Shown here: in pieces, positions 42,905 through 61,767 of the stretch
Layout: every line of letters starts with the position of its first letter
Position numbering within the stretch: position 1 is the stretch's first letter
NCBI GenBank assembly: GCA_048940925.1
Contig: JBHLOC010000012.1
Coordinates: forward strand, 38,316 to 102,315
DNA from: Promethearchaeota archaeon
GTDB lineage: Archaea; Asgardarchaeota; Lokiarchaeia; Sigyniarchaeales; SOKP01
Direction: 5' to 3'
DNA length: 64,000 nt
Notes under the pieces: model-generated
What the model saw: the letters and a program-made list of their open reading frames with translations, nothing else
What the model was told of the DNA's origin: nothing
Databases searched by the model: none
Position numbers and translations under genes: made by a program

Positions 42905-43261
42905 TTAATTTTGTAATTGGTCTTTTAATCTTTGACAGATATTAGAGATTCTTTTTCCAAGTTCCTCAAATAACGTATCTTTTTCTTCTAATAATCTATT
43001 TTTTTCCTGTAATTGCGTATGAATTTCATGATTAACCGGTTTTGGAGCAAATGAATTATGGTAAAATTGAAATATGCCTTGTAATTGTTCTAATAGATCT
43101 GCACGGAACTCCAATATCTGCCGTTTTACCTCGATAGGTTTACACTGTCCTTTACTGAGACGATCAATACTCTGTCTTAAGTTCTCTAATTCTTCTTCAT
43201 CAAAAATAACCTTTTCTAATGAATTATATAACATTTCATTTTGCGATTTTTGTTTTTCCAT
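42905..43261 (-). CDS. Coiled-coil hypothetical protein, last gene of the membrane operon
   Basis: GGAGG RBS; heptad-rich sequence; 12 nt after the preceding gene. Confidence 0.7.
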   Translation of the reverse strand: MEKQKSQNEMLYNSLEKVIFDEEELENLRQSIDRLSKGQCKPIEVKRQILEFRADLLEQLQGIFQFYHNSFAPKPVNHEIHTQLQEKNRLLEEKDTLFEELGKRISNICQRLKDQLQN

Positions 43262-43273
43262 ATGATTACCTCC

Positions 43274-46200
43274 TTAACTATAAATAAAGTCCTGAATCTC
43301 TTCAAAAAATTGTTTAATTCTATTATATAACTGTGTCGGATCATCCTTTCCAAAGGTAATAATTCTAAAGGAGTCTACATATGCTTGTAATAGTTCCTTA
43401 CGATAGGGAAACTCTTCAAAGCTACTAAGAAGATCGTAAAACATATTTAATTGATTATCTGTAACTAATCCTTCTTCATTATGAAAGTGGGTATACACAT
43501 TAGCTAAATATCTTCTCAAAAAATCATGCTCTATTTTCAATGCTTTCTTATGATTTCCCTTTCGAAGTGCATCCCAGATTAAGTATACCTCATGATAGGA
43601 ATCTGATAACTCACGTTGCAATGCTTTCTTTAGATTCTCTTTCTGGATAATAACTCTTCTGTGCTCGAATGGAGCAGGTGCATCCGCCTCTTTATCCATC
43701 ACTTCAACATTGATCTCTCCGTGAAGTCGTTGTTGAGCCTGATAATAATCTTGTAAAGCTATATTGTATTGTTCTCCGACACGATATGAAGTACGAATGG
43801 ATTGAGAACCACTTGCTTTTCGAGAATGATCTTCTACTAAATAGTGGTGTTTAATAAGAATATCGAGTAATATATCACGTAATTTAGTGATATGCTCTTT
43901 TTTCACTCTTCGCTGTATTGCTTTAGGTGCGATAAATTTTAATAGCTCTTTTTTTAATTTTTCCTTATATAAATTACCTATATTATCTAATTGACTTAAT
44001 GATGAAAGAAAGTCCATAATTTCTTTACGATACCCCATATAATTGCCTAAATCAATCTCAAAGATAGTTTGATGGGCGTGTTCCAAAAGTCTCCTTTCTG
44101 CATCCCTTAAATCATACCCCTGTGTTCTCATAAATGGAACGATTTCTTCATAAGGGAGTGGATGTTTTTTCACAATATCATCATATTCGAGTTGCACTGG
44201 AAACGCTTGATATATATCTTCTCTTTTGATTAAAGCTTTACAATTATTAAGATTCTTAAGATAATCAAGTTGATAGGTATTATTCCGTTTGGAACTGTAA
44301 TAGCCTGTTCCCACCAATTCTTGAAGATTCATCAAGTTTTTTAATAATGAAATGTCTCGATTATCAACTGCTTTAAACACCATGATATTAGGAAAATAGT
44401 TGAATACATTTTGATGTATGCTATGGACTTGATTTGCAGAATATACTACTCCGAATCCATGTTGACGTAAAGATCCTAAGAATTTGTCAATTTTACCATA
44501 ATGAGACTGTGTTGTTATATATCTGGAATCAAAGAATATATCAATACTAGGCATAAATATAATTTTTGGAATATACCCATCATTTGTCGTAATATAATGA
44601 ATGAGTTTGGAGACAATCAAAAATGCAAAGAATAACTGGGTGCTAAATTCATTCGTAATAGAAAGATCTACAATAACAGTTTTATCTGTCTTTATAAAAT
44701 CAGAGGATAGCACCTTGGATGCTGTAGCATTTAAGCATAATATAAGGTCTTCTTGCGTTAAATCAGAAAATACAGATCCTAATGCCATATTTGGTGGTCG
44801 TTTCTCCCAATCGCTTTGTGTTCTTATTTCTAAATTAAGTGAAGGAAGATCCATTTCAGGATTTTTTAATATTGTATTTCTAAACATTTCAATAGTTCGC
44901 TTGTCCTTTCGAAATGCTAATCCATAGACATCAAATAGAAATTCTTGGTATTTGCTATTGCTAAGATCATAAGGAATATCAGATCGTAAGGGATCTAAGC
45001 TGAATGAAGTTCCTAGTTTGAAATAGAGGAGTTCTTTCTCAAATTGGGTACCTTCAAAAAAGGAGATCAGTTTGGACCATCTCCCTGAAAAATCAAATAT
45101 AAGAGAAGGGATTTTGGCTTGGATTAATTCAGCAGCAATTTTCATAGAGGTATGTTCTCTCTCTTCAGATGTCCCATTTACGATGAGAAGCTGTCTTAAC
45201 TGATTTAACGTAAATCCGAAGGGAATTTCTGTTTCTAATATTTCTGTATTGAGTGTATGACCAAGAGTAATGAAATTTTTCAAGTGTAAAGGAGTGTTGA
45301 ATTCTGCCCCTATTCGTGTCTCTACACCTTTCTTATATTCATCAGAAATCTCAACCAACTTATTTAGAGTTTTTCCTTGCAGGATTAAGTATTGTAAGTG
45401 AGTACCACTTAACTTATAGTTATATGTCTTAAGGGTAGAGCATAAATATCCTGAGATTAGTTTACGTTTATGAAGAGGCATAAGCCGTAGTCCATTAAAA
45501 TTGGAGATAAACGCATGAGCAATTGCTTTACTCTTTTCATTAAGCTCATGTTCTAAATGAAGCATGTTTCGTACTCGCACTCGTCTGATATACTTACGAT
45601 TTGAGACTGATAACAGGAGCATAGATTCCCATAGCCCAGAACGCATAGTTGCCCATCGATGTTCTATGCTCGTAATTTCTCTTTTCTTTCTTCTCACCTT
45701 TTTTCTTAAATATTTATCCCATAGATAATAACGAGTAAAATCAAACCAATGTTGCGCTCTTGTATTAAGATGTTTAAAACAGGCTCTTTCAAACCGAGCT
45801 ATACTTATAGGTGTATTACATACCGTATATCCGAATGGAACTTTCTGAATCATTGCCGATTGAGTAAAGCTGTTCGCATGAGCAATGAGAGACGGACAAT
45901 ACTCATCTAAATTATACATTCTAAGATTTACCAGCATTTCATCGTTAATATGAAGAAAAATACTGGTAGGAATTCTGCTTGAAAAGTGGAATTTTATATC
46001 CGAAAATGGGTGTATAACAGTAAAATCTTTATTGTGGAGAAATAAAGTTTGAGAACCATGAAATAATAGCCCTCTCCACCATAGCCATATAATTCCAAAT
46101 ATTATTATAAAATTAATTGGAATAATGTAGAGAAAAAAACCAAGAATAATAAGAAATACATCTAAGTAGAAGATTACTATTGTGATAAAAATGATTTTAA

Positions 46201-47062
46201 ATCCTACTATCGAATTTTTTGGCTTAATAGTCTGTTCAGAAGCTTTAATAGGAATACTTTCTTTAAAGAAAAATGTACGTATACCATTTATTAACTCATC
46301 TCCTGAAAGTAATGTTATTTTGAAGTGATGGAAATTTGACGCAAATAAATTACGAAAGATTGCCTGATATTCGTATATTTTACTCTGTAAAAGATCAATT
46401 TTAAATTGTCGTAGAAACCCACGAATAGAAGAATGAATGCAAAAATAAATATAAGTCTTATAAGATCCCTGTGATCTTGTCTGAGTGCGTTGATTTTCAC
46501 TACTAGAAAGGTGAATCATCGGAATATGAATAACTTGATAAGTAAAGGGAATTAATTTACCGAGATCACTTAAGGTTTTAATATAGGTATTGGTAGTCTC
46601 ATGGACGTTTTCAGGGATAACCTCAATTTTAAACAATTGTATTGCAATATGAGTTAAATCTTCTTTATTCGTAACATAGAGGGTTGGGGTATCCCTTTTT
46701 TTCTGCCAAAATATGAAGTTAGAAAAGGGATTAAACATGAAGGATTTTCGAAAGGTAAATGAAATAAGATTTACGAAATTATAGCATTGGTCATAAAACG
46801 CTACAAGAAAAAACAGTAAGAATAGAACTCCTATGCTTACCGCAATATATAGTGGGATACCAACAAGATATGTAATAACTATAATAGACATTATTAGCAC
46901 TAAAAGGGAGATAGCTCTAATACTTGAAAAAGTGGTATTAATATGCTTAGGTTGAGGAGGTGTCCTCCAAATATTTAGGTAATCTTTATCTATCTCAAAT
47001 TCTACATTTCTCTTTAAGGTATATTTTTTCTTCTGGAATTTAGGCTCTTCTGACTCAATCAT
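43274..47062 (-). CDS. Membrane-bound VirB4/HerA(FtsK)-like protein with degenerate ATPase motifs
   Basis: Two TM hairpins each followed by an alpha/beta domain; ITLG...FGFTLNQLRQLLIVNGTSEEREHT, IPSLIFDFSGRW, LDPL, TVIVDLS, LRQHGFGVVYSANQ. Confidence 0.72.
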   Translation of the reverse strand: MIESEEPKFQKKKYTLKRNVEFEIDKDYLNIWRTPPQPKHINTTFSSIRAISLLVLIMSIIVITYLVGIPLYIAVSIGVLFLLFFLVAFYDQCYNFVNLISFTFRKSFMFNPFSNFIFWQKKRDTPTLYVTNKEDLTHIAIQLFKIEVIPENVHETTNTYIKTLSDLGKLIPFTYQVIHIPMIHLSSSENQRTQTRSQGSYKTYIYFCIHSSIRGFLRQFKIDLLQSKIYEYQAIFRNLFASNFHHFKITLLSGDELINGIRTFFFKESIPIKASEQTIKPKNSIVGFKIIFITIVIFYLDVFLIILGFFLYIIPINFIIIFGIIWLWWRGLLFHGSQTLFLHNKDFTVIHPFSDIKFHFSSRIPTSIFLHINDEMLVNLRMYNLDEYCPSLIAHANSFTQSAMIQKVPFGYTVCNTPISIARFERACFKHLNTRAQHWFDFTRYYLWDKYLRKKVRRKKREITSIEHRWATMRSGLWESMLLLSVSNRKYIRRVRVRNMLHLEHELNEKSKAIAHAFISNFNGLRLMPLHKRKLISGYLCSTLKTYNYKLSGTHLQYLILQGKTLNKLVEISDEYKKGVETRIGAEFNTPLHLKNFITLGHTLNTEILETEIPFGFTLNQLRQLLIVNGTSEEREHTSMKIAAELIQAKIPSLIFDFSGRWSKLISFFEGTQFEKELLYFKLGTSFSLDPLRSDIPYDLSNSKYQEFLFDVYGLAFRKDKRTIEMFRNTILKNPEMDLPSLNLEIRTQSDWEKRPPNMALGSVFSDLTQEDLILCLNATASKVLSSDFIKTDKTVIVDLSITNEFSTQLFFAFLIVSKLIHYITTNDGYIPKIIFMPSIDIFFDSRYITTQSHYGKIDKFLGSLRQHGFGVVYSANQVHSIHQNVFNYFPNIMVFKAVDNRDISLLKNLMNLQELVGTGYYSSKRNNTYQLDYLKNLNNCKALIKREDIYQAFPVQLEYDDIVKKHPLPYEEIVPFMRTQGYDLRDAERRLLEHAHQTIFEIDLGNYMGYRKEIMDFLSSLSQLDNIGNLYKEKLKKELLKFIAPKAIQRRVKKEHITKLRDILLDILIKHHYLVEDHSRKASGSQSIRTSYRVGEQYNIALQDYYQAQQRLHGEINVEVMDKEADAPAPFEHRRVIIQKENLKKALQRELSDSYHEVYLIWDALRKGNHKKALKIEHDFLRRYLANVYTHFHNEEGLVTDNQLNMFYDLLSSFEEFPYRKELLQAYVDSFRIITFGKDDPTQLYNRIKQFFEEIQDFIYS

Positions 47063-47900
47063 GGTTTATATCCTCTGTGGTTCTACTATTTTTCTTATAT
47101 AATATATAGAGTAGGATACAGGGCACAAAACAGATGGGACCCAATAATCCAAACACTCCTATGGTACTCGGTTGCATAATCATTTGTAATAACATTAATA
47201 GACTAAACATGAAGAATAACAACCCTACGCCAAAAACAAAATAAGAAAACATATGAGTCTGAGAACGCTGATAAGAGATATTATCCTTGAGAGTACCCTC
47301 AACGATGATTTTTCTACTTTTATGATTAGTAAGGGTATCTTTCATGGTCTTTAAATGAATTGCAGTTTTTAGGGTATTGGCATCCAGTCTTCTTGTATTT
47401 CCCTTTAACAATTGGGTCTCCTGTTGCTGGATTTTTTGTAATAATAACGGGTGAAGGAGATCATCATTTTTCCTTTTTTTCTGGGCCATCGAGGATAAAA
47501 ATGAAAACAAATTGCCAGGAGTCGTTATTGTAAGATCTTCTACTTGTAGGGTCTCATGCAAATTGGGTATATCTAATTTTAATAATTCAAAATAGTTAGC
47601 AAAGATTGTCTTGATATAATCGAGCGGTACATTACCCTGTGACTTTAAGAATACCTGCTCACATTCTTGTATGGAATAGAGAAGATCATCAGGAAAAATC
47701 TGGATCTTGAGATTCTTTAAGAATACCTCATTTATCATCCTCATATATTCAAAAAGTGTCTCGTGTTTATTCTTATTACAAGCTCTCATTCCTAATTTAA
47801 TCCCAAATTCATTGAGCTTATTATTGGTAAGAATTATCCCAACCCACGCTAATTTCTTATAATTATGGGTTCTCATACAAACTAAGATCAAATTCTTCAA
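47055..47900 (-). CDS. Hypothetical protein, soluble N-terminal domain plus two C-terminal TM helices
   Basis: TTG start; overlaps the next gene by 8 nt; hydrophobic hairpin near the C-terminus. Confidence 0.7.
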   Translation of the reverse strand: MKNLILVCMRTHNYKKLAWVGIILTNNKLNEFGIKLGMRACNKNKHETLFEYMRMINEVFLKNLKIQIFPDDLLYSIQECEQVFLKSQGNVPLDYIKTIFANYFELLKLDIPNLHETLQVEDLTITTPGNLFSFLSSMAQKKRKNDDLLHPLLLQKIQQQETQLLKGNTRRLDANTLKTAIHLKTMKDTLTNHKSRKIIVEGTLKDNISYQRSQTHMFSYFVFGVGLLFFMFSLLMLLQMIMQPSTIGVFGLLGPICFVPCILLYILYKKNSRTTEDINHD

Positions 47901-47911
47901 TTTCGTGGTAT

Positions 47912-48553
47912 TTATGATTTTAACTTCACCTCCTCTTCAGCCAACAATTTATCTAAATCTAAAGGCTCTTGAGCATTCAAGATGGTCTGCTCAACAGTCT
48001 TCTCCTTCTTGTCAAAACGTCGTATCGTTTGATAATGGAAGGAAGCATAGGGAGTGATTAAAACAAAAGCAATAATTTGGGCAATATATCCCGGACCAAT
48101 TGCACAAAAATGAAGAGAATGAGTCTGTAAATCCTCATAATAGGCAAAAGGAAAGTTGAGATCTCTAGGTATAAAAAACAATAAGGGAAATGCAAACAAA
48201 TTGATAAAAATTAAACTCCAGATACATATAGTAATCCAAGAGGAGAATATGATCCTATCGTGATTTTTATCAGTGTCAATATCTCTAAAGAGGACATCAT
48301 AGAAGGCCAAAATAATAATAATAATTGAAATAATTGCAATGAAAAAAGCTTCAGGAATTTCATACTGGTCTGTAAGGATATTGGGTTGTGTGGTGTGAAT
48401 AGACCATCCAAAAACCATGCTGAAATGCCCTGTCACGATTACTTCATGAAAAGCACCATAGATATAAAAGGAATACCAATCTAAGAATAATGATGCTAAG
48501 AATAAAATAAGACCTATGATAAAACACTTCTTAAATGTATCTTTTTGGGTCAT
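47912..48553 (-). CDS. Four-TM membrane protein (claudin-like topology possible)
   Basis: TM1-LDWY, extracellular loop, TM2/TM3, loop, GPGY-TM4, charged tail. Confidence 0.7.
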   Translation of the reverse strand: MTQKDTFKKCFIIGLILFLASLFLDWYSFYIYGAFHEVIVTGHFSMVFGWSIHTTQPNILTDQYEIPEAFFIAIISIIIIILAFYDVLFRDIDTDKNHDRIIFSSWITICIWSLIFINLFAFPLLFFIPRDLNFPFAYYEDLQTHSLHFCAIGPGYIAQIIAFVLITPYASFHYQTIRRFDKKEKTVEQTILNAQEPLDLDKLLAEEEVKLKS

Positions 48554-48556
48554 GAC

Positions 48557-50332
48557 TCACTCATTTAAAAACCTACTATATTTTCGAATAACTTTTTCTT
48601 TGTGGGTTGGTTGCCCTTCAAAAAACTTATCGTTTTGTACGATTTCTCTCAATTTAGATTTGGTATACAAATCTTCAGCATAAGTCTCTTCTATTTTGGA
48701 AATCACTTGAGTCTCAACAGTAGTATCAATACATTCATAGGAAAACTGAGCCATCAGTTCAGCAGAAAGCTGTTCATTAATTAGAATAAGGACTGAATCA
48801 TCTAGAATTTGGCGATAATACGGTAATGATGTCTTATCGAATATCATAGATTTATTTTGTAGATATCTAATATAAATAAAGGTTACTACACCTAAATATA
48901 TCCCAATTAAGCAGTATCCGAATATCGTTATGAAATTTAATAGAAAAAATGTTTGGAAAAGTATGAGAAGGAGAGCCACAAACCCAAAGCTTAGGATTGG
49001 TATAGAAGAATAGCGTATTTTCTCAATAAAATTATCTCGAATCTCATCATATTCAGCTGCTAGATCCTCACTTTCAGAAAACTCTTCTATAAGAGAATAT
49101 TTGCGTTCTAGAAAATCAAGAATTTCAGGGAGTTGAGCTAGTTCGATAACATGAATGTTTGTAGATTTATGATAGGCAAAAGGAATAACTTTATCTAAGA
49201 ACCCAACAGAACCAAGACACACAAGTAAAGGTTCAAGCAGTATTTTATATTGTAAGGGTCCATTTCGATATAATACCTTTTTAAAAAGAATTGATTTCTC
49301 CACCGATATCTCAAGTTTAAGAAAGTTAGTGAGCATCTGAGAGAATTGTCCTGAATTCATCAAATCATTTAGCATAACTTGGCATACTTTAGATAATTTG
49401 GTAAGGTAGGTGGTACAAACTTTCTTTATTGAAGGTTCCTCTTTCTTTACCTCACCCTCATAATCAATATGCGCCTGGGATATTTTTATTTTTCCTGTGA
49501 ATGAACTAAACTTAATAGGAAGTATAAGTAATAATTCCAGCATTTCATTTAATCTGAGCTGCTTTACCGCAATTGCATCAACAGTTGTAAATAGAGTTCC
49601 AGATTTAGGAAGAATATGATAATCTAAGGATTTTAATTCTGAATTTAATCGCGTAAGGAATTCTTGTCTTTCAATTTTTTCTGGGTGAATTACTACTGGT
49701 TTTTTTATTACTTCTTGGATTTTGGGAATGCTTTCTTCTTTAGGAATTTCATAAGTAATAGACTCTTCTTGAACAGGAGGAGTCATCACAGCTTTTATAG
49801 TGGAATTTACTCTATTGGGATGAGGATAGCTTTTTCCTAACTGTGAGATCTTAAATTTCTCTTCAAACCACGGTTTAAGTTCTTTTATATCCTCTACAGG
49901 TTCAACTTCATATTCTCTACCCTCCTTCTCAACAGTATCATAATAATATTCGGGTTCCTCATATTCAATCAAATCCTTTTCATCATGAGCTAGTTCAGAA
50001 TGCTCGGAGGCAGAATACTCATTTAAAGTTTTAAGACTACTAAACGACTTTGCAGCTCCAATAATTTTTTGAGCTGATTTCTCTCCAATCCCCTCAACTT
50101 CAGCTACTTGAGCTATGGTACTATTAGCTATCTTCTCAATCGAATCAAACCCATAGCGAAGAAGTCGCTCAGCAGTAGTTGACCCTACATATTTTAACTT
50201 AGTAATATCATTTTTTGCGGTAGCGCTTGCAATGAAAGCATTATCAATGGGTCTAGTCTCTTTATCCTCTTTTTCGGTTTCACCGTCAGTTAAATCTAAC
50301 GCATTATCAATTATTTTATCATGTTCTGTCAT
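48557..50332 (-). CDS. Membrane-anchored helix-hairpin-helix DNA-binding protein
   Basis: LKYVGSTTAERL and VEGIGEKSAQKI double HhH (RadA-N-like), acidic linker, central alpha/beta domain, two TM helices. Confidence 0.78.
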   Translation of the reverse strand: MTEHDKIIDNALDLTDGETEKEDKETRPIDNAFIASATAKNDITKLKYVGSTTAERLLRYGFDSIEKIANSTIAQVAEVEGIGEKSAQKIIGAAKSFSSLKTLNEYSASEHSELAHDEKDLIEYEEPEYYYDTVEKEGREYEVEPVEDIKELKPWFEEKFKISQLGKSYPHPNRVNSTIKAVMTPPVQEESITYEIPKEESIPKIQEVIKKPVVIHPEKIERQEFLTRLNSELKSLDYHILPKSGTLFTTVDAIAVKQLRLNEMLELLLILPIKFSSFTGKIKISQAHIDYEGEVKKEEPSIKKVCTTYLTKLSKVCQVMLNDLMNSGQFSQMLTNFLKLEISVEKSILFKKVLYRNGPLQYKILLEPLLVCLGSVGFLDKVIPFAYHKSTNIHVIELAQLPEILDFLERKYSLIEEFSESEDLAAEYDEIRDNFIEKIRYSSIPILSFGFVALLLILFQTFFLLNFITIFGYCLIGIYLGVVTFIYIRYLQNKSMIFDKTSLPYYRQILDDSVLILINEQLSAELMAQFSYECIDTTVETQVISKIEETYAEDLYTKSKLREIVQNDKFFEGQPTHKEKVIRKYSRFLNE

Positions 50333-50592: not shown

Positions 50593-50970
50593 ATGATTTT
50601 TTTTCTTTATATTCGATTATTTTATCAACTATTAGACTATTCATATAAGAGAGGAAATATCATTATTGTCTCTGGAAAGATAAAGAATAAAGCTGAAGTA
50701 AAACGAAAGGCAAAAAAGCCTATATTATGTCCCTTATGCCAAGAGAAAATTGAAATTGGAGTAGAAAATTCTGTTGTTAAGGATATTTCTTTGTCAAATT
50801 TAGTCTATTTTCCTCACATTCATATACATGGTAATCCTCTTCATGCTTTAATCTGCTATCTTAACTCAAAATTAGAGACAAGAAATATTGGAATCATTAA
50901 AAGTATTGAAATTTCACGGGATTCGGATACTCTTAAACAAGTTATGAATAAATGGACAAATCCTTATTAG
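50593..50970 (+). CDS. Small Zn-binding protein (CPxC...HxHxHGxPxH), start uncertain
   Basis: CPLC and FPHIHIHGNPLHALICY; overlaps the helicase start. Confidence 0.7.
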   Translation: MIFFLYIRLFYQLLDYSYKRGNIIIVSGKIKNKAEVKRKAKKPILCPLCQEKIEIGVENSVVKDISLSNLVYFPHIHIHGNPLHALICYLNSKLETRNIGIIKSIEISRDSDTLKQVMNKWTNPY

Positions 50971-53513
50971 CAGAGGGATTACAGATTAGTCTTACAGATT
51001 TCACGAGTAAAATTGAAGAAAAAGAAATTGAATCTCAAAAAAATAAAGAGATTTTCAAATATATTCCTGAAGAAAAAATACTCAGAGTATTATTCGAAAA
51101 TCGTATTTTTGAATTACGGGATATTCAAAAAGAGGCCATCAAAAAAGGTCTATTCTTCAGAAAATCATTTTTAGTTTGTGCTCCTTCTGGAAGTGGTAAG
51201 ACATTAATAGGAGAGATCTGTGCTGCGAATAATGTATTTCAGAAGTTTGGGAAATCAGTCTATTTGGTTCCTTATAAAGCTTTGGCGACAGAAAAATATT
51301 ATCATTTTAAAAAAGGATATAAAAGGTTTGGAATCAAAGTAAAATTGTCCATTGGAGATTATGATGTGGATGATTCTAAGTTATCAAAAGCAGATATTAT
51401 AGTTACTACCTATGAAAAATGCGATTCACTATTGCGAAATTTTTATGATAAAGACTGGATTTATGACATTTCAACGATTATTATTGATGAAATTCATATA
51501 ATTGGAGAATCAGATCGAGGTCCTAGGTTAGAATCATTGATCGTACGACTAAATGAATTTCTACACAACCCTCAAATTATCGGATTAAGTGCCACAATCG
51601 CAAATCCTGAGTTTTTTAACACGTGGCTCTCTTCATTAGGTAATAGAACTACGCTTATAAAATCCGATTCACGTCCTGTACCCTTGCATTATAAAATCGA
51701 AATAACCCAGAATAAAGATTCTACCATAAAACATACCGTAAAATCTATTTTAGGAAAAAATGGTCAATTGCTCATCTTTGTAAATAAACGAAGAAGTGCT
51801 CAGCAAACTGCAGAATCGCTACAAATCTTAGTAAAAAAATATCTTGAAGATGCAGAATTAACCATATGTAAAGCATTAGAAAAGCGTCTTGATTCTATTA
51901 AAGGTGGGCATCAAGATTTAAAGAAGGTAATTAAATCTGGAATCGCATTTCATCATGCAGGACTCCTTCCTCGTGAACGAAGACTTATTGAAGATAATTT
52001 TCGAAAACGAATCATAAAGGTTGTATGCTGTACAACTACTTTATCAGCAGGAATAAATACTCCCGCACGAGCGGTTATCCTTAAGGATTTTAAAAAATAT
52101 GTGAGATCGGGGCATAATATTACAAATTATTCTGGTTATTTTGAAAATGGAGATGGGTTTAGCTATTTTAGACCTTTTTCAGCAAATGAAGTATTTCAGA
52201 TATTAGGAAGAGCTGGACGACCTGGATTGGATTCTGTAGGGTATGGTATTATCCTTGTAAAGAATATAGATGAGAAATTATGGGTTGAAGATCATTTTTT
52301 TAATGTCCAGCTGCCTTCTCATGAACTAATTCCTCGATATAATAATTTAGACTCAGGATTGAATAAAATAAATACATTGCAAGAACAGGTATTATTACGT
52401 GTATTTGAAGAAAAGCATATTACTACTGAAAAGCTAAAGGAATTTTTTGAAAAGACCTATTTTTGGTTTGGAATTAAAGATAAAATGAGACAACAAAAAA
52501 TTCCTATCGAACAATTATTAATGATAAGAGAGATAACTCCTCAGAATATTCTCAAGCTTCATTCTGATCCTCAGAGAGTAGAACAATTAAGAAAATCTCA
52601 TTATCAGATTAAATTATCACATTTTAATGACTCTACCCTCGGGGGACATGTGAAAACCGATTATGGAGTTTATTTCTGCCAATTCACGATCGAGACTGGT
52701 ATCCAATGTTCATGCGGATTCCAAAACGGCATGTCTGATAATTTTGCAAATGACGAGTTTTCATTTCACTTTTGTGATCACATTACTTTATTTCTTCAAT
52801 ATTTAATTGAATTACCTGATCAGTCCTTACAGAAATATACTAATTCTATCATCCCTAAAAGTATCAAAAATCAATATATTCTCTCTTATTTGTTTGAGAA
52901 AGGGCTTATTATGAGAGATAAAAAAGGGTTTCTCACCTGCTCTCAGTTTGGAAGTCTAATTATCAAATTATATTTATATCCTGTATCGGGAGTAATGATC
53001 AGATATAAACTTGAGAACAATGAAATTAATACCTTTCAGCAACTTATCAAGGAAGCCTATGATGTGCTTAAAGCAGAATATCGGGTAAAAGACTTTCATA
53101 TGCTTCAACCGCTTTTAGAATGGGCTGACGAAGAACCTATAGAAGAAATTTTAGAGCGGTACAACATTATGGCAGGAGATTTACATTCGGTGAGAGATAA
53201 TTTGGAGCGTATTGTCTCATTTATAGGCCATATTGCTAGTGATCTGAGTACAAATGGGTATGATCTTAGAACCAAGTTATCAAGAGTATCAGAAATGGCA
53301 GAGACTCTAAGAATCCGTGTTAAATACGGAATCCGAGAAGAATTATTTGATCTGGTGTTGAGATTACATGATGTTGCAAGGGTTCGAGCGCGAATTCTCT
53401 TTAATGCGGGATATCATACCGCTACTAAAGTAAAACAAGAAAATCCCTATATACTATATCAAAAAACAGGATTAGGAATTAATTTATGCAAAAAAATTAT
53501 TGGTGAAAAATAA
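50952..53513 (+). CDS. hel308: Ski2-like SF2 helicase, Hel308/Hjm paralog with inserted SWIM zinc finger
   Basis: APSGSGKT, PYKALA, DEIH, SAT, HHAGL, GINTPA, QILGRAGRPG, CSC-x19-CDH, C-terminal VARVRARILFNAG. Confidence 0.88.
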   Translation: MDKSLLAEGLQISLTDFTSKIEEKEIESQKNKEIFKYIPEEKILRVLFENRIFELRDIQKEAIKKGLFFRKSFLVCAPSGSGKTLIGEICAANNVFQKFGKSVYLVPYKALATEKYYHFKKGYKRFGIKVKLSIGDYDVDDSKLSKADIIVTTYEKCDSLLRNFYDKDWIYDISTIIIDEIHIIGESDRGPRLESLIVRLNEFLHNPQIIGLSATIANPEFFNTWLSSLGNRTTLIKSDSRPVPLHYKIEITQNKDSTIKHTVKSILGKNGQLLIFVNKRRSAQQTAESLQILVKKYLEDAELTICKALEKRLDSIKGGHQDLKKVIKSGIAFHHAGLLPRERRLIEDNFRKRIIKVVCCTTTLSAGINTPARAVILKDFKKYVRSGHNITNYSGYFENGDGFSYFRPFSANEVFQILGRAGRPGLDSVGYGIILVKNIDEKLWVEDHFFNVQLPSHELIPRYNNLDSGLNKINTLQEQVLLRVFEEKHITTEKLKEFFEKTYFWFGIKDKMRQQKIPIEQLLMIREITPQNILKLHSDPQRVEQLRKSHYQIKLSHFNDSTLGGHVKTDYGVYFCQFTIETGIQCSCGFQNGMSDNFANDEFSFHFCDHITLFLQYLIELPDQSLQKYTNSIIPKSIKNQYILSYLFEKGLIMRDKKGFLTCSQFGSLIIKLYLYPVSGVMIRYKLENNEINTFQQLIKEAYDVLKAEYRVKDFHMLQPLLEWADEEPIEEILERYNIMAGDLHSVRDNLERIVSFIGHIASDLSTNGYDLRTKLSRVSEMAETLRIRVKYGIREELFDLVLRLHDVARVRARILFNAGYHTATKVKQENPYILYQKTGLGINLCKKIIGEK

Positions 53514-53879: not shown

Positions 53880-54143
53880 CTGAGTTCTAAAATCTCAAAA
53901 GAAAAGTATCAAGATAATATCAGACTTAAGATAACTGAAGAAAGAATTGTCGGTTTAGAGAAAGCGGTTATCTCTTTTTCTAAGCTCACTGGATTTTCTC
54001 ATACTGCATTTGTTTATACCGGAAATGAATCGATCCCATTTAAAGACACTCATCCTGTATATCAAACTATTCTGCGAAATGAATTTGCTGATGCTATTAG
54101 GAAATCTGTGAAGGAAAGAAAGAGAGTTCTTAACTTATTATAA
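53880..54143 (+). CDS. Unannotated 87-aa protein with CTG start
   Basis: Open frame from CTG 53880 to TAA 54143; AAGGT upstream; fills the gap between annotated genes. Confidence 0.5.
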   Translation: MSSKISKEKYQDNIRLKITEERIVGLEKAVISFSKLTGFSHTAFVYTGNESIPFKDTHPVYQTILRNEFADAIRKSVKERKRVLNLL

Positions 54144-54668
54144 CCTCTCTACATCTAACTTATAGGAATTAGAGGTTAATTTAATTAGTATTCCGTTTTC
54201 TAAAAAATTTCGGGTTAAGATCTTGATTTCAGAAGAGGGAATTCCAAAATTATCTGCCATCACTTCTATTACGTATAATGGAAATTTCTTATACATTGAT
54301 GAAATTTTTAAAAGCATTTTCTTGTAACTCTTCAGTAGTCTATCATCGTCATTTTCAATGTTCTTGATCTGTCTTGATCTAGAACTTGAACGTGCTACTT
54401 TAAAGTCGCTGGAAGCTCTTAAGTCTGGAATATCCCCTATTGTCTTGATTGCTAGTTCATGCTGTCGTGTTTTCACCACCTCTATTGCTTTACTAACCCC
54501 ATTTACTAATTCGCTTGAGTCTTGTATATTTTCTACTTTATGAGACCTTCCGCATCTTAGGCATTTCTTGGTCTTTTGGGTAGTCTTGACATACATATAT
54601 TGGTGACATTTTCTACAGGTAAATACATAATAGGGTGTCTGATCTCTTTCCCATGCGATATCTTCCAT
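54138..54668 (-). CDS. DUF1922-like Zn-ribbon protein with C-terminal wHTH-like region
   Basis: VFTCRKC-x13-KCLRCGR; start overlaps the Hef stop. Confidence 0.7.
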   Translation of the reverse strand: MEDIAWERDQTPYYVFTCRKCHQYMYVKTTQKTKKCLRCGRSHKVENIQDSSELVNGVSKAIEVVKTRQHELAIKTIGDIPDLRASSDFKVARSSSRSRQIKNIENDDDRLLKSYKKMLLKISSMYKKFPLYVIEVMADNFGIPSSEIKILTRNFLENGILIKLTSNSYKLDVERL

Positions 54669-56800
54669 TATATTTCCTCTTTTTGAGTGTCCAATATATT
54701 TTTAACAATAAACGAAAGTTCTTCTTCATTATCGATACAAATGACATGAAGCTGATTATCCTTTCCAAATCTTATAAGTCTTTCTCGAAGCACCCGTTTC
54801 TCGCCTTCGAGTTCTTCTTTGAAAGTAATGAAATCAAAAACGATAATTAATAATTCACATAACTCTTGGAAATCGTTTAATTCAGAGATAAAGGTTGGAT
54901 CAGCTATTTTATCAGGGGGATAGATTTGAATTAACACTTTATTTAATAAAATAATATGAAGATCTGAATCAGTAATTTCATAATGAAGATAATTCTGTTC
55001 TAATTGCTTTCGTAATCCATATTTCATTGAAAGATGTGAACTTATTTTGACCTCTGCATCTTTAATACCTTCCTCTTTAGGATGTAAAAAAGCTCGAAGA
55101 TTTGACTGTCTCTGCCTTGTATTCTCTCTTCTTATTTCTCGAGGAACCAACTCAGTGCTTTTCATTTCTGATACTGACTCAATGTCCACAAGAGGAAATT
55201 CATAGTGTTCACGTTCCTGTGTAGGTTGTCTCAGAGTAAAGTTCATTCTCTTAAGCTTATTTAATGCAATTCTCAGGTATATCTCATCATGAGTGTTCTT
55301 GCAATATAAGATTATCACTCGACCTTGTCGATGTCGTGCAGTCCGTCCTTTACGTTGAATAAGCCTAATTTCAGATGCCACTACATCATAGAATATTACT
55401 AAATCACATTCCGCAATATCCAGACCTTCTTCTCCCACATTAGTGCTTACTAAGACGTTATATTCTCCCTCTCTAAATTGATCTAGAATCTCGATTTGTT
55501 GTTTTTGGGATAAACCTTTATCATCCGTAGACTTAGTTGCTTGTCCTACAAATCGTACCGCATGAATCCTATTCGTATCCTTAAGCTTATTTACAATATT
55601 TTTAACAGAATCCCGAAGTTTTACAAAAACTAGAATTCGGGAAATAGGATTAGTTCTCAACTCATCTAAAATTACTTTAACCAACACTTGATATTTGGGA
55701 TGAATTAAGTTATCAGGGGTAAAATCATGATTTTTCTTAAGCTCCAAGAATAGTTGATTTAATCTATAATCCCCTGTTAATACTCGTACTGCTTTGGAAC
55801 TATTTTTCTTTTTAGCATCTTTATACATTTTCTCAAGATAATGTAATAGTACATCAAGTCCCTGCTGTTCAATTAATTCTTGCATATGGAACAATATTAA
55901 TCCTTGGGCATTAATAGATAAGGCGCTATATACTCCAATTGTATCCCCATTCTTTAAAGCAGCAATTAGTTCACTATTGAGTCGCAATAGATCTTTTCTA
56001 ATAATATGAGCATATAATGGTTCTCCCTTAATTTCCAAAAAATTAAGCTGAGAAAGATATTGTAAGCGTTCTTCTAATACGCTGTTAAGCAATTCATATG
56101 CATGACTCATTAATTCAGTTAAATTTACTCCGATTTTATACACATCCATTGGTTTGAGATAAGTTTTCACATCTCTATCTTTTCGGGTTCGAATATGGAT
56201 ATTCTCCTGAGAAATAAATAGATTTTTACACAGCATATTGATTTTTTGCTTTGATGCTCCTGGAGATGCTGTCAACCCTAAAATGGTTCCATCGGGATTT
56301 TGTTCTACAAATTTCTCTGCTATCATGGTATAGGGATAGTCTCCTGATGCATGATGAGCCTCATCAAAAATAATAAGAGCAGTAGTTTCAAGTGTATATT
56401 TGTTATGTATTAAATCGTTTCGTAAGGTTTGAGGAGTGTAAAAAATGATTTGAGAATTATTAAATATTTCTGCTCGATCTTGGGGGTTAACTTTCCCAGT
56501 AAGCACTACAAAGGTATCTTCAGGAAGAGTGAGGAACTTCATAAATGTGTCATAGTGCTGATTAATTAAAGGTCTGGTGGGAGCAAGGACAATTATTTTG
56601 CTCTGGGGCGGGTATGTTTGTAATATTCTACTTGCCACTAGCACTGCGATTATAGTCTTTCCTAATCCTGTTGGTAGCACTACTAAGGAGTTTTTTAATA
56701 TACATTTATTGGCAATTTCGGTCTGATATTTTCGTATTTCAAGGTCTCTTCCCTTTACTAAAGAAGCCGAATTAGTAGAATTTGTCTTAAGTGCCCCCAT
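54668..56800 (-). CDS. hef: Hef/FANCM(Mph1)-like SF2 helicase with degenerate ERCC4-like C-terminal domain
   Basis: RKYQ, LPTGLGKT, PTRPL, DEAHHA, TASPG, FVGQA, GEEGLDI, QRKGRTAR. Confidence 0.9.
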   Translation of the reverse strand: MGALKTNSTNSASLVKGRDLEIRKYQTEIANKCILKNSLVVLPTGLGKTIIAVLVASRILQTYPPQSKIIVLAPTRPLINQHYDTFMKFLTLPEDTFVVLTGKVNPQDRAEIFNNSQIIFYTPQTLRNDLIHNKYTLETTALIIFDEAHHASGDYPYTMIAEKFVEQNPDGTILGLTASPGASKQKINMLCKNLFISQENIHIRTRKDRDVKTYLKPMDVYKIGVNLTELMSHAYELLNSVLEERLQYLSQLNFLEIKGEPLYAHIIRKDLLRLNSELIAALKNGDTIGVYSALSINAQGLILFHMQELIEQQGLDVLLHYLEKMYKDAKKKNSSKAVRVLTGDYRLNQLFLELKKNHDFTPDNLIHPKYQVLVKVILDELRTNPISRILVFVKLRDSVKNIVNKLKDTNRIHAVRFVGQATKSTDDKGLSQKQQIEILDQFREGEYNVLVSTNVGEEGLDIAECDLVIFYDVVASEIRLIQRKGRTARHRQGRVIILYCKNTHDEIYLRIALNKLKRMNFTLRQPTQEREHYEFPLVDIESVSEMKSTELVPREIRRENTRQRQSNLRAFLHPKEEGIKDAEVKISSHLSMKYGLRKQLEQNYLHYEITDSDLHIILLNKVLIQIYPPDKIADPTFISELNDFQELCELLIIVFDFITFKEELEGEKRVLRERLIRFGKDNQLHVICIDNEEELSFIVKNILDTQKEEI

Positions 56801-57407
56801 TCGCTTCCACTCTAACTATATAATTCTCAATAATAAATTCACTAATCGCCTTATTACTCTTATTATATGAAATAAGCATATCTCCAATTTTTTGTCCTAT
56901 ATCAGAGAGATACACTAAGTTATTTTGAGCAATAATAAAAAGAAGTGGATGAGTTTCGAGTAATATATTAAGTTTTTGAGTGAGTGGGCTGGACTGTAAG
57001 ATGTTAAATCCTTTACCCTTATGGACTACTTTAAACCAGTAATAGATATCATTTAGCACTTTTATTTGGGTGGAAGTAAACTTAATTATAATTGGCTCTT
57101 TTATTTGCTTTTGAACAATCATATAGAGTTGATTCCCTTCCCTTTTTCTAAGTAGTTTATAGTCCTTAAAGATGGTATGAAACATATTTTGGTATTCTAC
57201 AATAAGAGAGATTAGCTCATTGATATCTGTTGAGCTAACTTGTAAGTATTGTGCAAATTTAGTGATATTAAATTTTTTATTATAATTGTTCTTGAATCGG
57301 CTTAAGATGTCTAACATATTCCGTAATAAATTAATTGTCTTCTTGATATATTTACCAATCTGACTAGTAAGTTCCAGAGACTGTGAATCGAAACTCATCA
57401 AGATCAC
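56787..57407 (-). CDS. Hypothetical protein, possible tandem winged-helix
   Basis: FNITKFAQYLQVSSTDINELI HTH-like segment; YLSDIGQKI wing; overlaps hef. Confidence 0.55.
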   Translation of the reverse strand: MILMSFDSQSLELTSQIGKYIKKTINLLRNMLDILSRFKNNYNKKFNITKFAQYLQVSSTDINELISLIVEYQNMFHTIFKDYKLLRKREGNQLYMIVQKQIKEPIIIKFTSTQIKVLNDIYYWFKVVHKGKGFNILQSSPLTQKLNILLETHPLLFIIAQNNLVYLSDIGQKIGDMLISYNKSNKAISEFIIENYIVRVEANGGT

Positions 57408-57442: not shown

Positions 57443-60382
57443 TTATCGTTTCTTTAGTTTTTTAGTTTTCACGGTAGTAATTACTATGACACTTCCAGGA
57501 ATGATAGTCAAAATGGTGATAACGGGAATAGTTTGAAGGAGTTCATTCTTATAATTGAGATTAGGTTTATCAAGAGGATCATCTGGGACCTCATTTTCAG
57601 GTATGATCTCTCCTTTATAGAAAGTATAGTTCCCAAGAAACATCCATTCGTTAGTTATTCCATCTGTAAGATAAATCCCGAAAGTATAAGACGAGTCAAG
57701 ATTAACCTCATAGTTCAGAGAAAAGATTGAATAATTCTCGTGGTCGTGCCTATAGAAATATTCTGTATCCAAAAATCCATATTCCCAATATACTGACGCA
57801 TAAGCTGAGCCGAATGATATGTTATGATCTTTTAGGCTTGTTCGATAGGTACCATTAATTTCAAGATATACAGAACTATTTATCGCATCAGTTTTTAAAG
57901 AATAATTTATAGCGTACTCGGTATAGATAGTAATATTCTTTTCACTAATCTTTCTAAATCCTTCATATGCTTCTAATCTCATAGGTATTTCAGGATAATA
58001 ATTCCTATCTATTGGTACATATACTTCTTTTGTGAACTCATTACCTTCTACTCTATCAAACAAAATCGTACCTAAATCCTTATGGATACATTTTAAGGTG
58101 ATATATGTGCCATAATCATCAATGATGAGATTCTGAACATTTGCAGTAAAAGGAATATACTCGCCTAACGGTATAGTTTCAGGATAATCCACATTGATAA
58201 TCACATCACTATTCTGTGCCAAATCGCATATCCAATGTAAAATTGCATGATCCATTCTATTATGGGTAGGAGTCAAATAAAATTCACATAGTTCTTCTGA
58301 ATATATCGCTTTCATCAAATTTTGGATAGAAATTGAATTAAATTCTATATCGAGATCAAGTATTTGGACGATTTTGTAAGAAAAATAAATATTCTTGATA
58401 TTAGTATAATCCAGATGATCTAAAACATAATTCTCAATCTTTTGGGTATTTTTACTAAATAAGTTCAATGCTTTAAGGGCATAAATCATATAATAGGTGT
58501 GTTCTAAAATATCTTCTACCTTCGAAGTATATCCGGGATCAAGATAAAGATAATTTGTAGATTCTACTATCTTTCTATCAATAAAGCAATACAAAGCATT
58601 TGTATCGAAGGGGAGTTGACTAAGCTCACCTAATCCGAGGAACTGTGCCAATAATTCCAAATTTCGAACCGCATAATATGTATTTAGGAAGAATACATTC
58701 TTGCTTAAATACTCAGAGAACGTCGGATTATAAGGTTCCCAATAAGTAAATCCCCCAAAACTGTTATAATATGAATCATTGAGAAATTGAGAAGCAATAA
58801 TATCATTTAATAATTCGTTTAAATCATAGCTTTGCCCAAAGTCATCAAGTTTAAACATATTCTGTAAGGAAGTGAGGGCGTGAAAAGTTGCTTTATGAGA
58901 AATAAGCACGTTAACATCATCCACATAGTTCTTATATCCTATAGTATAGAATTCATAGGGACGTGATCGAAAGCCGATAAATGATTTACCTCCTGCAATA
59001 TATTCTACAAATCGACATGAACCTGTAGTATAATATGAAGAGATAATATCATTATAAAGTTGAGAAATATCGAGATCTGAAAGTCTATCATATAATTTAT
59101 ACGAAGAGACAATACTATGGATTAAATCCATACTCATATAATCCCTAGATAAAGGAGTAAATCCATCATAACTATAATAGTTTGAGATAGCACTACTGAT
59201 TTGAGTTTTGTCATCTTCATCTAATCGCGAAATCTCACCCGTATTATTTAACACCCGTATAATCTGAAATATATCTATGAGTTCGTGATAATCAAGTAAA
59301 GTGGAAGAATCCCAGGTTCCCCATGAATTGCGATTGTTAAGTAGAAATGCAATCACATTTTCACGGTTGATATTCGGATCATTAGTAATATCAGAGAGCT
59401 CCAGTCCAAGTGCAGTCGCTACGATATTCGCATATTCTATGCCAAAATCCATCTGTGATATTCGAAAATAATAAGTGGTAGAATCATATAATCCATCTAA
59501 AAAGGAGTAGAAGTTAGGCTCACTAATGCTTCCTTGCATACCAAATAGTTCCAATGTCTTGATACAATAATATGAACTGAGCATATTAGGTTCAAAAAGA
59601 GGACTAAGGCTATCAAAGGAGCTATTTAGATCATTAAGAAATCCACCTACCATCCAACCTGCTCCTTGAGATATTTGTAACTCATTTACATATTGGATAA
59701 TCTGATCCCTTTCAGCAGTATATAATGTCCAATCATCCATTAGAAGATCTAATGCATAAACCGCAAAAAAAGTATTATCCATAGTTGAAATTTTGAATCC
59801 TTCTTCTAAGGTTTGTTCATATTTTTGCCCGATAAATCCCGAAGTATCGGTATCATAGCAGTCCCAAATATATGAAATCATCTTCGAAGTATCAATTAAG
59901 TTAAGGGAGTTTAATAAATCTAATGACATTATCCCATAGCAATTAACTTCCAATTGCGTATTTAAGGGATAATATACTTGATTGAAGTCAGTATCAAGAT
60001 ACCTATAGGCATACTTATCCATGAATAAATTCATATCACCATCATAATAAGACATAATATGGTTGAGGACTTCAGTGCCATTTATATCCTCTAACTTCCC
60101 AATAGCATCTAATATATACAAACCATAATAGGTTGCTTGAATTGAAGAATCAAACATTTGTGTGTAATACCCATCATCTTGATATTGACGAATCTTTTGG
60201 GAAAAGATTTCTTGGAGTATCTCCCCATTACTCTTCGAGGAATGTCCGAGATGGGTATGATCCAACTTGTTATAAGGTAAAAACTCAACTTTAGCACCGC
60301 TTCTAGGGAAGATATACATTATTGAACCTGCAAATACAAACATGAAAAATAGAATAGTACTTAACTTTTTTCTTTTCATCAT
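57443..60382 (-). CDS. Large surface protein with prenyltransferase/squalene-cyclase-like (alpha/alpha) repeats and C-terminal TM anchor
   Basis: Signal peptide; repeated TY(Y/F)(A/G)-x3-L-x2-L and GGF motifs; beta-rich C-terminal region; TM plus KKLKKR. Confidence 0.7.
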   Translation of the reverse strand: MMKRKKLSTILFFMFVFAGSIMYIFPRSGAKVEFLPYNKLDHTHLGHSSKSNGEILQEIFSQKIRQYQDDGYYTQMFDSSIQATYYGLYILDAIGKLEDINGTEVLNHIMSYYDGDMNLFMDKYAYRYLDTDFNQVYYPLNTQLEVNCYGIMSLDLLNSLNLIDTSKMISYIWDCYDTDTSGFIGQKYEQTLEEGFKISTMDNTFFAVYALDLLMDDWTLYTAERDQIIQYVNELQISQGAGWMVGGFLNDLNSSFDSLSPLFEPNMLSSYYCIKTLELFGMQGSISEPNFYSFLDGLYDSTTYYFRISQMDFGIEYANIVATALGLELSDITNDPNINRENVIAFLLNNRNSWGTWDSSTLLDYHELIDIFQIIRVLNNTGEISRLDEDDKTQISSAISNYYSYDGFTPLSRDYMSMDLIHSIVSSYKLYDRLSDLDISQLYNDIISSYYTTGSCRFVEYIAGGKSFIGFRSRPYEFYTIGYKNYVDDVNVLISHKATFHALTSLQNMFKLDDFGQSYDLNELLNDIIASQFLNDSYYNSFGGFTYWEPYNPTFSEYLSKNVFFLNTYYAVRNLELLAQFLGLGELSQLPFDTNALYCFIDRKIVESTNYLYLDPGYTSKVEDILEHTYYMIYALKALNLFSKNTQKIENYVLDHLDYTNIKNIYFSYKIVQILDLDIEFNSISIQNLMKAIYSEELCEFYLTPTHNRMDHAILHWICDLAQNSDVIINVDYPETIPLGEYIPFTANVQNLIIDDYGTYITLKCIHKDLGTILFDRVEGNEFTKEVYVPIDRNYYPEIPMRLEAYEGFRKISEKNITIYTEYAINYSLKTDAINSSVYLEINGTYRTSLKDHNISFGSAYASVYWEYGFLDTEYFYRHDHENYSIFSLNYEVNLDSSYTFGIYLTDGITNEWMFLGNYTFYKGEIIPENEVPDDPLDKPNLNYKNELLQTIPVITILTIIPGSVIVITTVKTKKLKKR

Positions 60383-60537
60383 AAATTATCCTTGAAGTAT
60401 GAATAATACTACTCTTAAAGCGAATCTATTTAAATAAAAAAATTGAACTGCCACTCAATAGCTATTATGAAGAGGGGAAAAGGAGGATAAAAAAAGTGAA
60501 GTAATTAGGAGGGTAAAAACCTGACCTAACATAATCA

Positions 60538-61767
60538 TCAGCACTTAAAGGGCGGACCTTTGCCTTTTGAATATGTCCTGAAAAGCATATTAAACTGTGG
60601 AAGTTTTACGATGTCATCTTTCTCACACTGATTGAACTTTTGATATGGCTTATAAATGTTCAGTTTGGCAAGAATTAAGTTATTATCCTCATCTTTTAAA
60701 GCAAAGAGATAAAAATCAATTGAATCATTATTATTAAAGACTTTCTTTGCATGTCCAGGTATAATTTTAACAATATCACTAGTCTCTTCTGGACTTTCAA
60801 ATATACCTAACCTTTTCATAATGTCTACTAATAAATCAGAAGATTTTACTAAACTTTTAAATCTCTTCACATTAAATCGCTCAAAAAAATTACTTTTTAC
60901 TTGAACTTGAATAGTACTCATCCGTATATTAAGTAATTTACAAATAGAATTCACATTTAATGTATCCTTATAACAACACAACGCTGAAATTGAAGCACAT
61001 AACCCAGCGACAACATCATCTTTAGTATTTTTAATGATATCCCATAACTTGTATAAAATTTTTCTAGTGAAGAGCCCAAATGATCTATCTAAATTAAATT
61101 CAGCTTGTATATAACTTATTTTTTGAAGAATAACCATTTGTCGATTATATTCGTTATATTTTGGAAGAAAATTCCTCATCTGCAATTTAAAATGGTTAAA
61201 CTCCTTTTTCGATATTTCACTGTTATTTATGAAATCAGTCTCCGCTCGTGAAATATTTCTTAATTTTAAACAATAGTATGTAACAACTGGAACTAATTTT
61301 TCAACACTTCGATATTTAGTTCCTGGTCTAAAACTATTATATACTTTCACACATTTGTTAAATATGTACTGTTTTAACGAAGCTCCAGAATCATTTAAGT
61401 TAAGTTTGGTGAAGAGATCAGAGATCTTTTTCCAAATATTACGTTTAACTACTCTAGAGTTATCCTGTTCCAAATTTCTCTTATTTAATCGTCTAAACTT
61501 GGTAGAGTTTGGAAAATTCAAACGTTCATGGAGGGTTCCTACTTGAGTTGCTCCTATCCGTGGTGAAATTTGAATGATATCATCATTATAGGGGCGGTTG
61601 TATTGCAATTTTTTGATCTCAAGCACTATACCACAATTTCTACATACATAAGACCCTCTATCTTCAACTATATCCTCCGAATCACATAAATCACATTTTA
61701 AAGTTTCAAATCCGAATAATCTAGCCTCAAATTCCTGTGTTTTATACGAAGCCATTACCTTGATCAC
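60538..61767 (-). CDS. tfb: Divergent transcription factor B (TFB/TFIIB) paralog
   Basis: Zn ribbon CDLC-x13-CRNCG, two cyclin-like repeats, ICKLLNIRMSTI HTH, C-terminal extension ending GKGPP. Confidence 0.8.
   Translation of the reverse strand: MIKVMASYKTQEFEARLFGFETLKCDLCDSEDIVEDRGSYVCRNCGIVLEIKKLQYNRPYNDDIIQISPRIGATQVGTLHERLNFPNSTKFRRLNKRNLEQDNSRVVKRNIWKKISDLFTKLNLNDSGASLKQYIFNKCVKVYNSFRPGTKYRSVEKLVPVVTYYCLKLRNISRAETDFINNSEISKKEFNHFKLQMRNFLPKYNEYNRQMVILQKISYIQAEFNLDRSFGLFTRKILYKLWDIIKNTKDDVVAGLCASISALCCYKDTLNVNSICKLLNIRMSTIQVQVKSNFFERFNVKRFKSLVKSSDLLVDIMKRLGIFESPEETSDIVKIIPGHAKKVFNNNDSIDFYLFALKDEDNNLILAKLNIYKPYQKFNQCEKDDIVKLPQFNMLFRTYSKGKGPPFKC

Follow-up and report, generated by a model that had tools for sequence, protein, structure and literature searches.

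Why would an Asgard archaeon keep, with its reading frame intact, a large membrane-anchored relative of VirB4 whose Walker A and Walker B motifs have both been lost? The question is raised by gene P0001, which occupies positions 43274..47062 (-) of a 64,000-nucleotide stretch (here, the window) of a Promethearchaeota archaeon genome (GenBank assembly GCA_048940925.1, contig JBHLOC010000012.1, positions 38,316 to 102,315), for which the names of homologues indicate Lokiarchaeia. Asgard archaea are the closest prokaryotic relatives of eukaryotes. The explanation that we favor, and to which we give an even chance of being correct, is that the 1262-aa product serves as a non-catalytic VirB4-type membrane subunit in a DNA-transfer system of the Ced/Ted kind, one that is chromosomal, domesticated, and passed on vertically and that supplies DNA for recombination. 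The computed basis for this explanation comprises the fold, family-wide loss of the motifs, selection on the dead domain, the membrane anchors, and linkage to recombination genes. The gene itself was confirmed as real: the frame runs without a break from an ATG start, is preceded by a GAGGA Shine-Dalgarno-like site, and overlaps the upstream gene by 8 nt.

Searched alone, the protein matched nothing in Pfam, NCBIfam, or PADLOC and nothing of use in the PDB, so its family had to be assigned by profile or fold searches; a match to the PCSK9 prodomain (E 0.02) was dismissed as chance. A profile of 88 relatives matched HerA structures (E 1e-9 for an anti-phage HerA and 1e-4 for 4d2i), and profile and fold searches together placed a HerA/VirB4-fold pseudo-ATPase domain at aa 575-965 (44168..45340 (-)). 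The AlphaFold2 (AF2) model of aa 575-1115 (predicted local distance difference test score [pLDDT] 90) superposed on VirB4 4ag5 with Z 25.1 and a root-mean-square deviation (rmsd) of 4.0 over 332 aligned residues, a match tied with DndH-C (25.0) and near HerA 4d2i (24.1); the top 24 rows of a wide structure search were VirB4, HerA, coupling proteins, packaging ATPases, FtsK, and EccC. The domain has the P-loop ATPase fold, the HerA/VirB4 strand order, and the helical insert that mark the FtsK/HerA fold. Membership of the HerA/VirB4 superfamily, which the original prediction had read from the letters alone, was thus borne out by both kinds of search, and the best structural match lies inside the FtsK/HerA/VirB4 group. 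In the N-terminal half (aa 28-575, pLDDT 92), residues 84-548 fitted residues 15-399 of TrwK (Z 25.4, rmsd 3.5, 314 aligned), with the next chain at Z 9.3; Foldseek returned only VirB4 as significant (E 1e-8, next fold 0.37), and VirB3-VirB4 fusion models were among the nearest in the Atlas (template modeling score 0.57). Since both halves match VirB4, the models identify the protein as a VirB4 homologue of full length that carries its own membrane anchors, its four hydrophobic helices starting at residues 43, 65, 282, and 304. Beyond the ATPase domain, aa about 995-1112 (43727..44080 (-)) probably form a winged helix, judging from the AF2 secondary-structure order H-H-H-E-E-H and from Pfam PadR/HTH_34/MarR matches in other members; the direct profile match of the 1262-aa copy is weak (17%). 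A helical tail follows; the original prediction names neither of these two parts.

The two pairs of hydrophobic helices belong to two units, at aa 28-268 (46259..46981 (-)) and aa 272-560 (45383..46249 (-)), which are homologous to each other (HHalign 99.3%, E 3.5e-20, against at most 1.8% for ten controls, nine of them shuffled and one reversed) and in each of which the AF2 model (pLDDT 92) shows the same order of secondary structure. The duplication of a hairpin-bearing module that had been proposed for this protein therefore holds, but not its reading as two VirB3-VirB4 N-terminal fusions: because the units together cover one VirB4 N-domain (TrwK 15-399), each is modeled as a membrane hairpin joined to one half of this domain, unit 1 having the first half and unit 2 the second. 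Other Asgard lineages distribute these parts differently. Thorarchaeia fuse a single unit to the ATPase domain in a protein of about 785 aa and have a unit by itself in a 200-aa gene two places upstream (profile, 94.7%); Baldr-, Freyr-, and Helarchaeia carry one unit on a separate adjacent gene. CedB and CedD have N-domains that correspond, when superposed, to different portions of that of VirB4 (PMC11868833), and both proteins are required for DNA import (PMC11868833, PMC11823120), an arrangement that the two-gene split in Thorarchaeia parallels.

The loss of the catalytic motifs extends far beyond this copy. The motifs quoted in the original prediction are all present, among them the degenerate Walker A NGTSEEREHT (aa 629-638, 45149..45178 (-)) and Walker B IIFMPSID (aa 834-841, 44540..44563 (-)), and the proposed alignment of orthologues was made with 224 non-redundant members (169 near and 55 distant) and 31 relatives chosen for an intact Walker A. 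In it N629 takes the column of the first glycine, S632 and E634 those of the other two, R635 that of the lysine, and E636 that of the Ser/Thr, while P838 and S839 occupy the acidic-pair columns of Walker B, with Pro838 at the Asp position. No member (0/224) has a canonical Walker A of either form, GxxGxGK[ST] or GxxxxGK[ST], so orthologues do not all keep intact motifs. The lysine column holds arginine in 196 of 224 members (158/169 near, 38/55 distant), and the lysine of all 31 intact relatives falls in it; a GK[ST] occurs in the N-terminal part of the domain in 18 near homologues, never as GxxxxGK[ST]. The Walker B aspartate is replaced by proline in 167 of 169 near members and is variable in distant ones, some of which retain an acidic Walker B. 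Within the finger/sensor segment (aa 865-878), the arginine-finger column is Arg in 27 of 169 near members versus 24 of 31 intact relatives, and the sensor Gln878, at the end of strand 4, is kept by 147 of 169 near members and is not conserved in distant ones. Asp657 is invariant among the near members (169/169). The family also has a conserved loop of its own, aa 920-931 (44270..44305 (-)), whose Arg926 is found in 223 of 224 members; it is shorter or absent in the Walker-A-intact relatives and is a candidate contact for DNA or a partner.

Some of these residues could be taken to mean that the protein is not fully dead: it could sense nucleotide or hydrolyze ATP slowly at an atypical site, or act as a dominant regulator of the intact paralogue. 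The conservation of Arg635, Asp657, and Gln878, the Asp/Glu841 of the proposed atypical site, and the acidic Walker B of some distant members are compatible with such a role, which we nevertheless judge very unlikely, given that nothing is left of the P-loop glycines, of the Ser/Thr, or of the arginine finger and that the Walker B Asp is Pro in nearly every near member. Nor does the gene look like what remains of an integrated conjugative element in decay, although its VirB4 ancestry might suggest this, as might the additional copies and fragments that some genomes contain, G000:C37 among them. Mean identity is 52% in the dead domain versus 29-36% in the units, and the ratio of nonsynonymous to synonymous substitution rates (dN/dS) is 0.03-0.07 versus 0.14-0.25, as estimated from three pairs, two of which have dS near saturation. 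Since the motifs are missing throughout the family and conservation is highest, and dN/dS lowest, in the dead domain, the comparison points to old, selected inactivation and not to decay, as had been supposed from the intact frame. The gene is, moreover, usually present once per genome, in 52 of the 68 genomes of the host's own family and in many other Asgard families, its tree groups by lineage, and the 64-kb window holds no tRNA gene and has a flat GC content. Selection and distribution together have already refuted decay, to which we leave almost no probability.

Of 301 Asgard genomes, 134 gave profile matches to the pseudo-ATPase, some few of them cross-hits to intact relatives. Besides the host family, the gene is present in 51 of 76 Thorarchaeia and in all 6 Freyrarchaeia; the profile search did not find it in Heimdallarchaeaceae (0/28), in Odinarchaeum (0/4), or in two other families of 11 genomes, and a divergent member (P0274) occurs in one genome labeled Heimdallarchaeota by NCBI. 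In a quick, midpoint-rooted tree with no CedB, CedD, TedB, or plasmid outgroup, all 60 dead rows lay on one side of a branch (98%). A plasmid search with a distant member gave no match, and no type IV secretion system (T4SS) gene, relaxase, or mobile-element mark was found nearby. Several genomes hold irregular copies. A fragment at G000:C37:36355-37154 (L051), 35% identical, begins inside unit 2 and reaches the contig end; it is a remnant, a paralogue, or contamination (8.4% for this genome). In the single-contig genome of Ca. Harpocratesius (G044; L067, L068), the dead gene lies in pieces at two distant places. Extra dead copies in G012:C76 (L047/L141) and G015:C30 (L048/L142) directly adjoin genes for a soluble motif-intact ATPase (about 630-680 aa) and for a 1200-1670-aa protein bearing acidic repeats; this pair of ATPase and giant protein is found again next to an M50-like gene (L147) and, in G012:C59, at about 11 kb from another extra dead copy.

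The neighborhood of the gene ties it to DNA metabolism and to the membrane. It is the fourth of a tightly coupled five-gene run encoding proteins of 591, 213, 281, 1262, and 118 aa, with intergenic gaps of 3, 11, -8, and 12 nt. The first (48557..50332 (-)) has a RadA-type helix-hairpin-helix (HhH) N-terminus (Pfam HHH_5, E 9e-13; RadA N-terminus, E 4e-10), a middle domain, and a membrane hairpin. The second is a four-helix membrane protein (47912..48553 (-)), and the third has a C-terminal membrane hairpin (47055..47900 (-)); neither had a family match in database or profile searches. These three genes accompany the VirB4-like gene in 15 of 18 main loci of the host family, and the last gene, for a helical protein (42905..43261 (-)), lies downstream in 11 loci. 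Divergent from the operon is a Hel308-type helicase gene (50952..53513 (+), Pfam), which recurs in 11 of the 18 main loci. Among 29 other Asgard loci, Hel308 occurs in 16, a RadA-like gene in 18, XPD in 12, and FEN1 in 12, and none of these genes is found at 27 loci of the intact paralogue described below. In Thorarchaeia, DNA-enzyme genes and the dead gene form one overlapping, co-directional operon. It had been suggested that the neighboring helicases power the protein; synteny with Hel308 is the one observation behind this suggestion. A promoter scan with a bacterial consensus stayed at chance level.

Around these loci we noted further genes. Five Thorarchaeia loci (L075, L171-L174) have an operon in which a divergent RadA, XPD, Hel308, two RadB-like genes (one lacking Walker A), and a FEN1-like gene surround the dead ATPase. 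In the window, positions 54138-57407 (-) encode a 710-aa Hef-type helicase with no obvious nuclease match in Pfam, a Zn-ribbon DUF1922 protein resembling a Thorarchaeia operon gene product (profile comparison, 69%), and a 206-aa protein. Positions 57443-61767 (-) hold genes for a 979-aa secreted protein, which is anchored at its C-terminus and contains a prenyltransferase-like toroid, and for a paralogue resembling TFIIB; a few relatives again have both near the operon. Ced of Sulfolobales is reported to be controlled by a TFB paralogue (PMC6101594). A 251-aa M50-like membrane peptidase with an HExxH motif (62240-62995 (+)) has homologues near the pseudo-ATPase family in several Lokiarchaeia loci.

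The need for an active partner, put forward in the original prediction, is still conjecture; the search for an active paralogue that went with it did yield a Walker-A-intact gene, unlinked to the dead one and of matching distribution at the level of families. The best-scoring intact relatives in the host genome are membrane-anchored ATPases of 593 aa (C6:9515-11296) and 586 aa (C40:261473-263233), with CedB as the best NCBIfam match (E 1e-6). Intact paralogues form an Asgard clade (99%) in 172 of 301 genomes. In Thor-, Hel-, Freyr-, and Baldrarchaeia the paralogue occurs in long forms, which combine membrane helices with a colinear N-domain of two units (90% and 63%) and keep both Walker A and the arginine finger intact. 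Because the intact forms of the host family pass from membrane helices straight to the ATPase, with no N-domain, the dead gene, with its full N-domain, and the intact gene appear from their domain layouts to be complementary there. Both genes are present in the two cultured Lokiarchaeia, Promethearchaeum syntrophicum (dead DSAG12_02162, intact QEE14850.1) and Ca. Lokiarchaeum ossiferum (dead G055:C1:5632341-5633966, intact NEF87_002698). After removal of cross-hits and one Loki-type gene (family f27), the intact clade was present in 13 of the 15 families carrying the dead gene and in 3 of the 15 without it. We hypothesize that the intact paralogue is the partner motor of the dead protein; the predicted complex of the dead domain with the host genome's own intact paralogue scored 0.00, which is neither support nor counter-evidence. 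A 643-aa soluble ATPase (G000:C6:474-2405) was rejected as a general partner, being patchy (12/60 relatives) and having an N-domain unmatched to the units by profile; ATPases of this type adjoin the extra dead copies in two genomes.

Two observations concern intact ATPases elsewhere. A conserved 81-85-aa two-helix membrane protein, pilin-like by layout, is encoded near the intact paralogue in three other families (L169:3254-3499, L191:11550-11801, L185:2877-3131, L186:14148-14405, and L187:15179-15436); searches of the PDB and NCBIfam gave no match for it, and the host genome yielded none. At L144:9732-12356 (G018:C69), seven membrane helices and an intact ATPase from the patchy soluble family are joined in one 874-aa protein; genes for a 726-aa ATPase and for a multi-helix membrane protein, which resemble pilus-assembly genes, lie close by.

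Among the closest known machines, CedB/CedD of the crenarchaeal Ced DNA-import system and TedB/TedD of Thermoproteales (PMC11868833, PMC11823120, PMC9905601) share with it several features: a chromosomal, membrane-anchored HerA/VirB4-type protein, a VirB4 N-domain of two parts separable onto two genes, two paralogues per genome, and, for the Ted loci, a position near recombination genes. The Asgard protein differs from them in lacking Walker A, Walker B, and the arginine finger, in fusing both N-domain halves, each with its own hairpin, and in adding the probable winged helix and helical tail, and no CedA/TedA channel or CedA1/TedC pilin was found for its operon. With VirB4 (TrwK of R388, VirB4 of T. 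pseudethanolicus) it shares the full N-domain and the ATPase fold, and with VirB3-VirB4 fusions an N-terminal membrane hairpin like that of the fused VirB3, but a second hairpin is inserted between the N-domain halves and the catalytic motifs are lost. The ATPase fold is equally that of HerA from the archaeal HerA-NurA-Mre11-Rad50 operon (4d2i, Z 24.1), whereas the N-terminus is VirB4-type, has no HAS barrel, and is membrane anchored; the host genome has separate soluble HerA-like genes, two of which adjoin Mre11/Rad50-like genes. The nearest named families are CedD (NCBIfam), matching 13 of 88 members with a best E of 9e-12, and the CedB cluster of the Atlas (0.96). The curated VirB4_CagE, P-loop_TraG, and CD1110 models did not match the 1262-aa protein (one member reached E 0.006 to CD1110), a search of the host genome with PF19044 found nothing, and no CedB or CedD scored above the curated cut-off in 201 Asgard genomes, the CedD model also picking up ordinary HerA genes across Asgard without discrimination. 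By fold and context the protein resembles CedB/CedD or VirB4, but because the catalytic-motif and curated-score tests failed for each system, we do not file it as a member of either.

In the Ced/Ted-like system that we favor, the two hairpins would anchor the protein in place of VirB3, and the N-domain would dock to a membrane channel or oligomerize. The dead ATPase domain would form or join a ring, gripping DNA through the Arg926 loop and winged helix, with energy supplied by the unlinked intact paralogue, by Hel308, or by both; in the host family the paralogue, without an N-domain of its own, would need that of the pseudo-ATPase protein. DNA would then pass to the linked HhH protein and Hel308, and elsewhere in Asgard to the RadA, XPD, and FEN1 copies, for recombination.

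Several findings weigh against this explanation. The main gap is that family and profile searches identified no VirB6/CedA channel and no VirB2/CedA1 pilin for the operon, whose coupled two- and four-helix membrane genes match no family, and the small membrane neighbors differ between Asgard classes, with no detectable homology in a partial profile comparison of Loki with the other classes. Every family match falls far below its curated cut-off (600 bits for CedD). The family-level co-occurrence of dead and intact genes rests on few independent losses, kin not being independent. Because the paralogue is unlinked and never near the dead gene in main loci, has ED, DD, or EE in place of DE at Walker B, so that its activity is not certain, and shows a weak association with the dead gene within the host family (p 0.08), we advance the partnership only as a hypothesis.

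The missing channel and pilin, a motor dead in all members, and neighbors that are repair enzymes and a membrane-anchored HhH protein would all suit a former T4SS motor that now merely tethers DNA and repair enzymes to the membrane within one cell, in the service of repair, recombination, or the handling of chromosomes, with nothing crossing the membrane. We regard such a tether as fairly unlikely: the whole VirB4 N-domain, which in T4SSs contacts VirB3 and VirB8 (PMC12857230), has been retained with high model confidence, a motif-intact VirB4-like paralogue has the same distribution, and the closest systems transfer DNA. It is quite improbable, in our judgment, that the protein is the scaffold of a protein-secretion or surface-assembly machine, like a T4SS or a type VII secretion system, with the repair genes mere neighbors. 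The next structural matches of the N-terminal half are indeed ESX-3 and ESX-5 chains (Z 9.3 and 8.6), and large surface proteins and the M50-like peptidase recur nearby, but the ESX matches are far weaker than those to VirB4, the DNA enzymes of the Thorarchaeia operon overlap and run in one direction with the dead gene, and the protein has a probable winged helix and an HhH partner.

In summary, the strongly conserved but motif-dead protein, its recombination-gene neighbors, and its motor-intact sister point to a so far undescribed machine that handles DNA at the membrane. We tentatively suggest, as a possibility to which we give somewhat less than an even chance, that a machine for exchanging DNA between cells is inherited in most Asgard lineages, made of one ATP-dead and one ATP-binding VirB4 paralogue and equipped with its own recombination enzymes. 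No paper that treats VirB4-like Asgard genes or mentions these locus tags turned up in our literature search, most subscription papers being outside its reach. If the suggestion is true, it would amount to a parasexual system in the prokaryotic relatives of eukaryotes; Heimdallarchaeaceae and Odinarchaeum are lineages in which the machine was not found. For this class of motor, a VirB4 maintained in a dead state throughout most of a phylum, and best conserved in its dead domain, would represent a novel design. The means by which Asgard archaea exchange DNA are still to be established and matter for how sex and meiotic recombination arose, and the family supplies concrete candidate genes in two cultured Lokiarchaeia.

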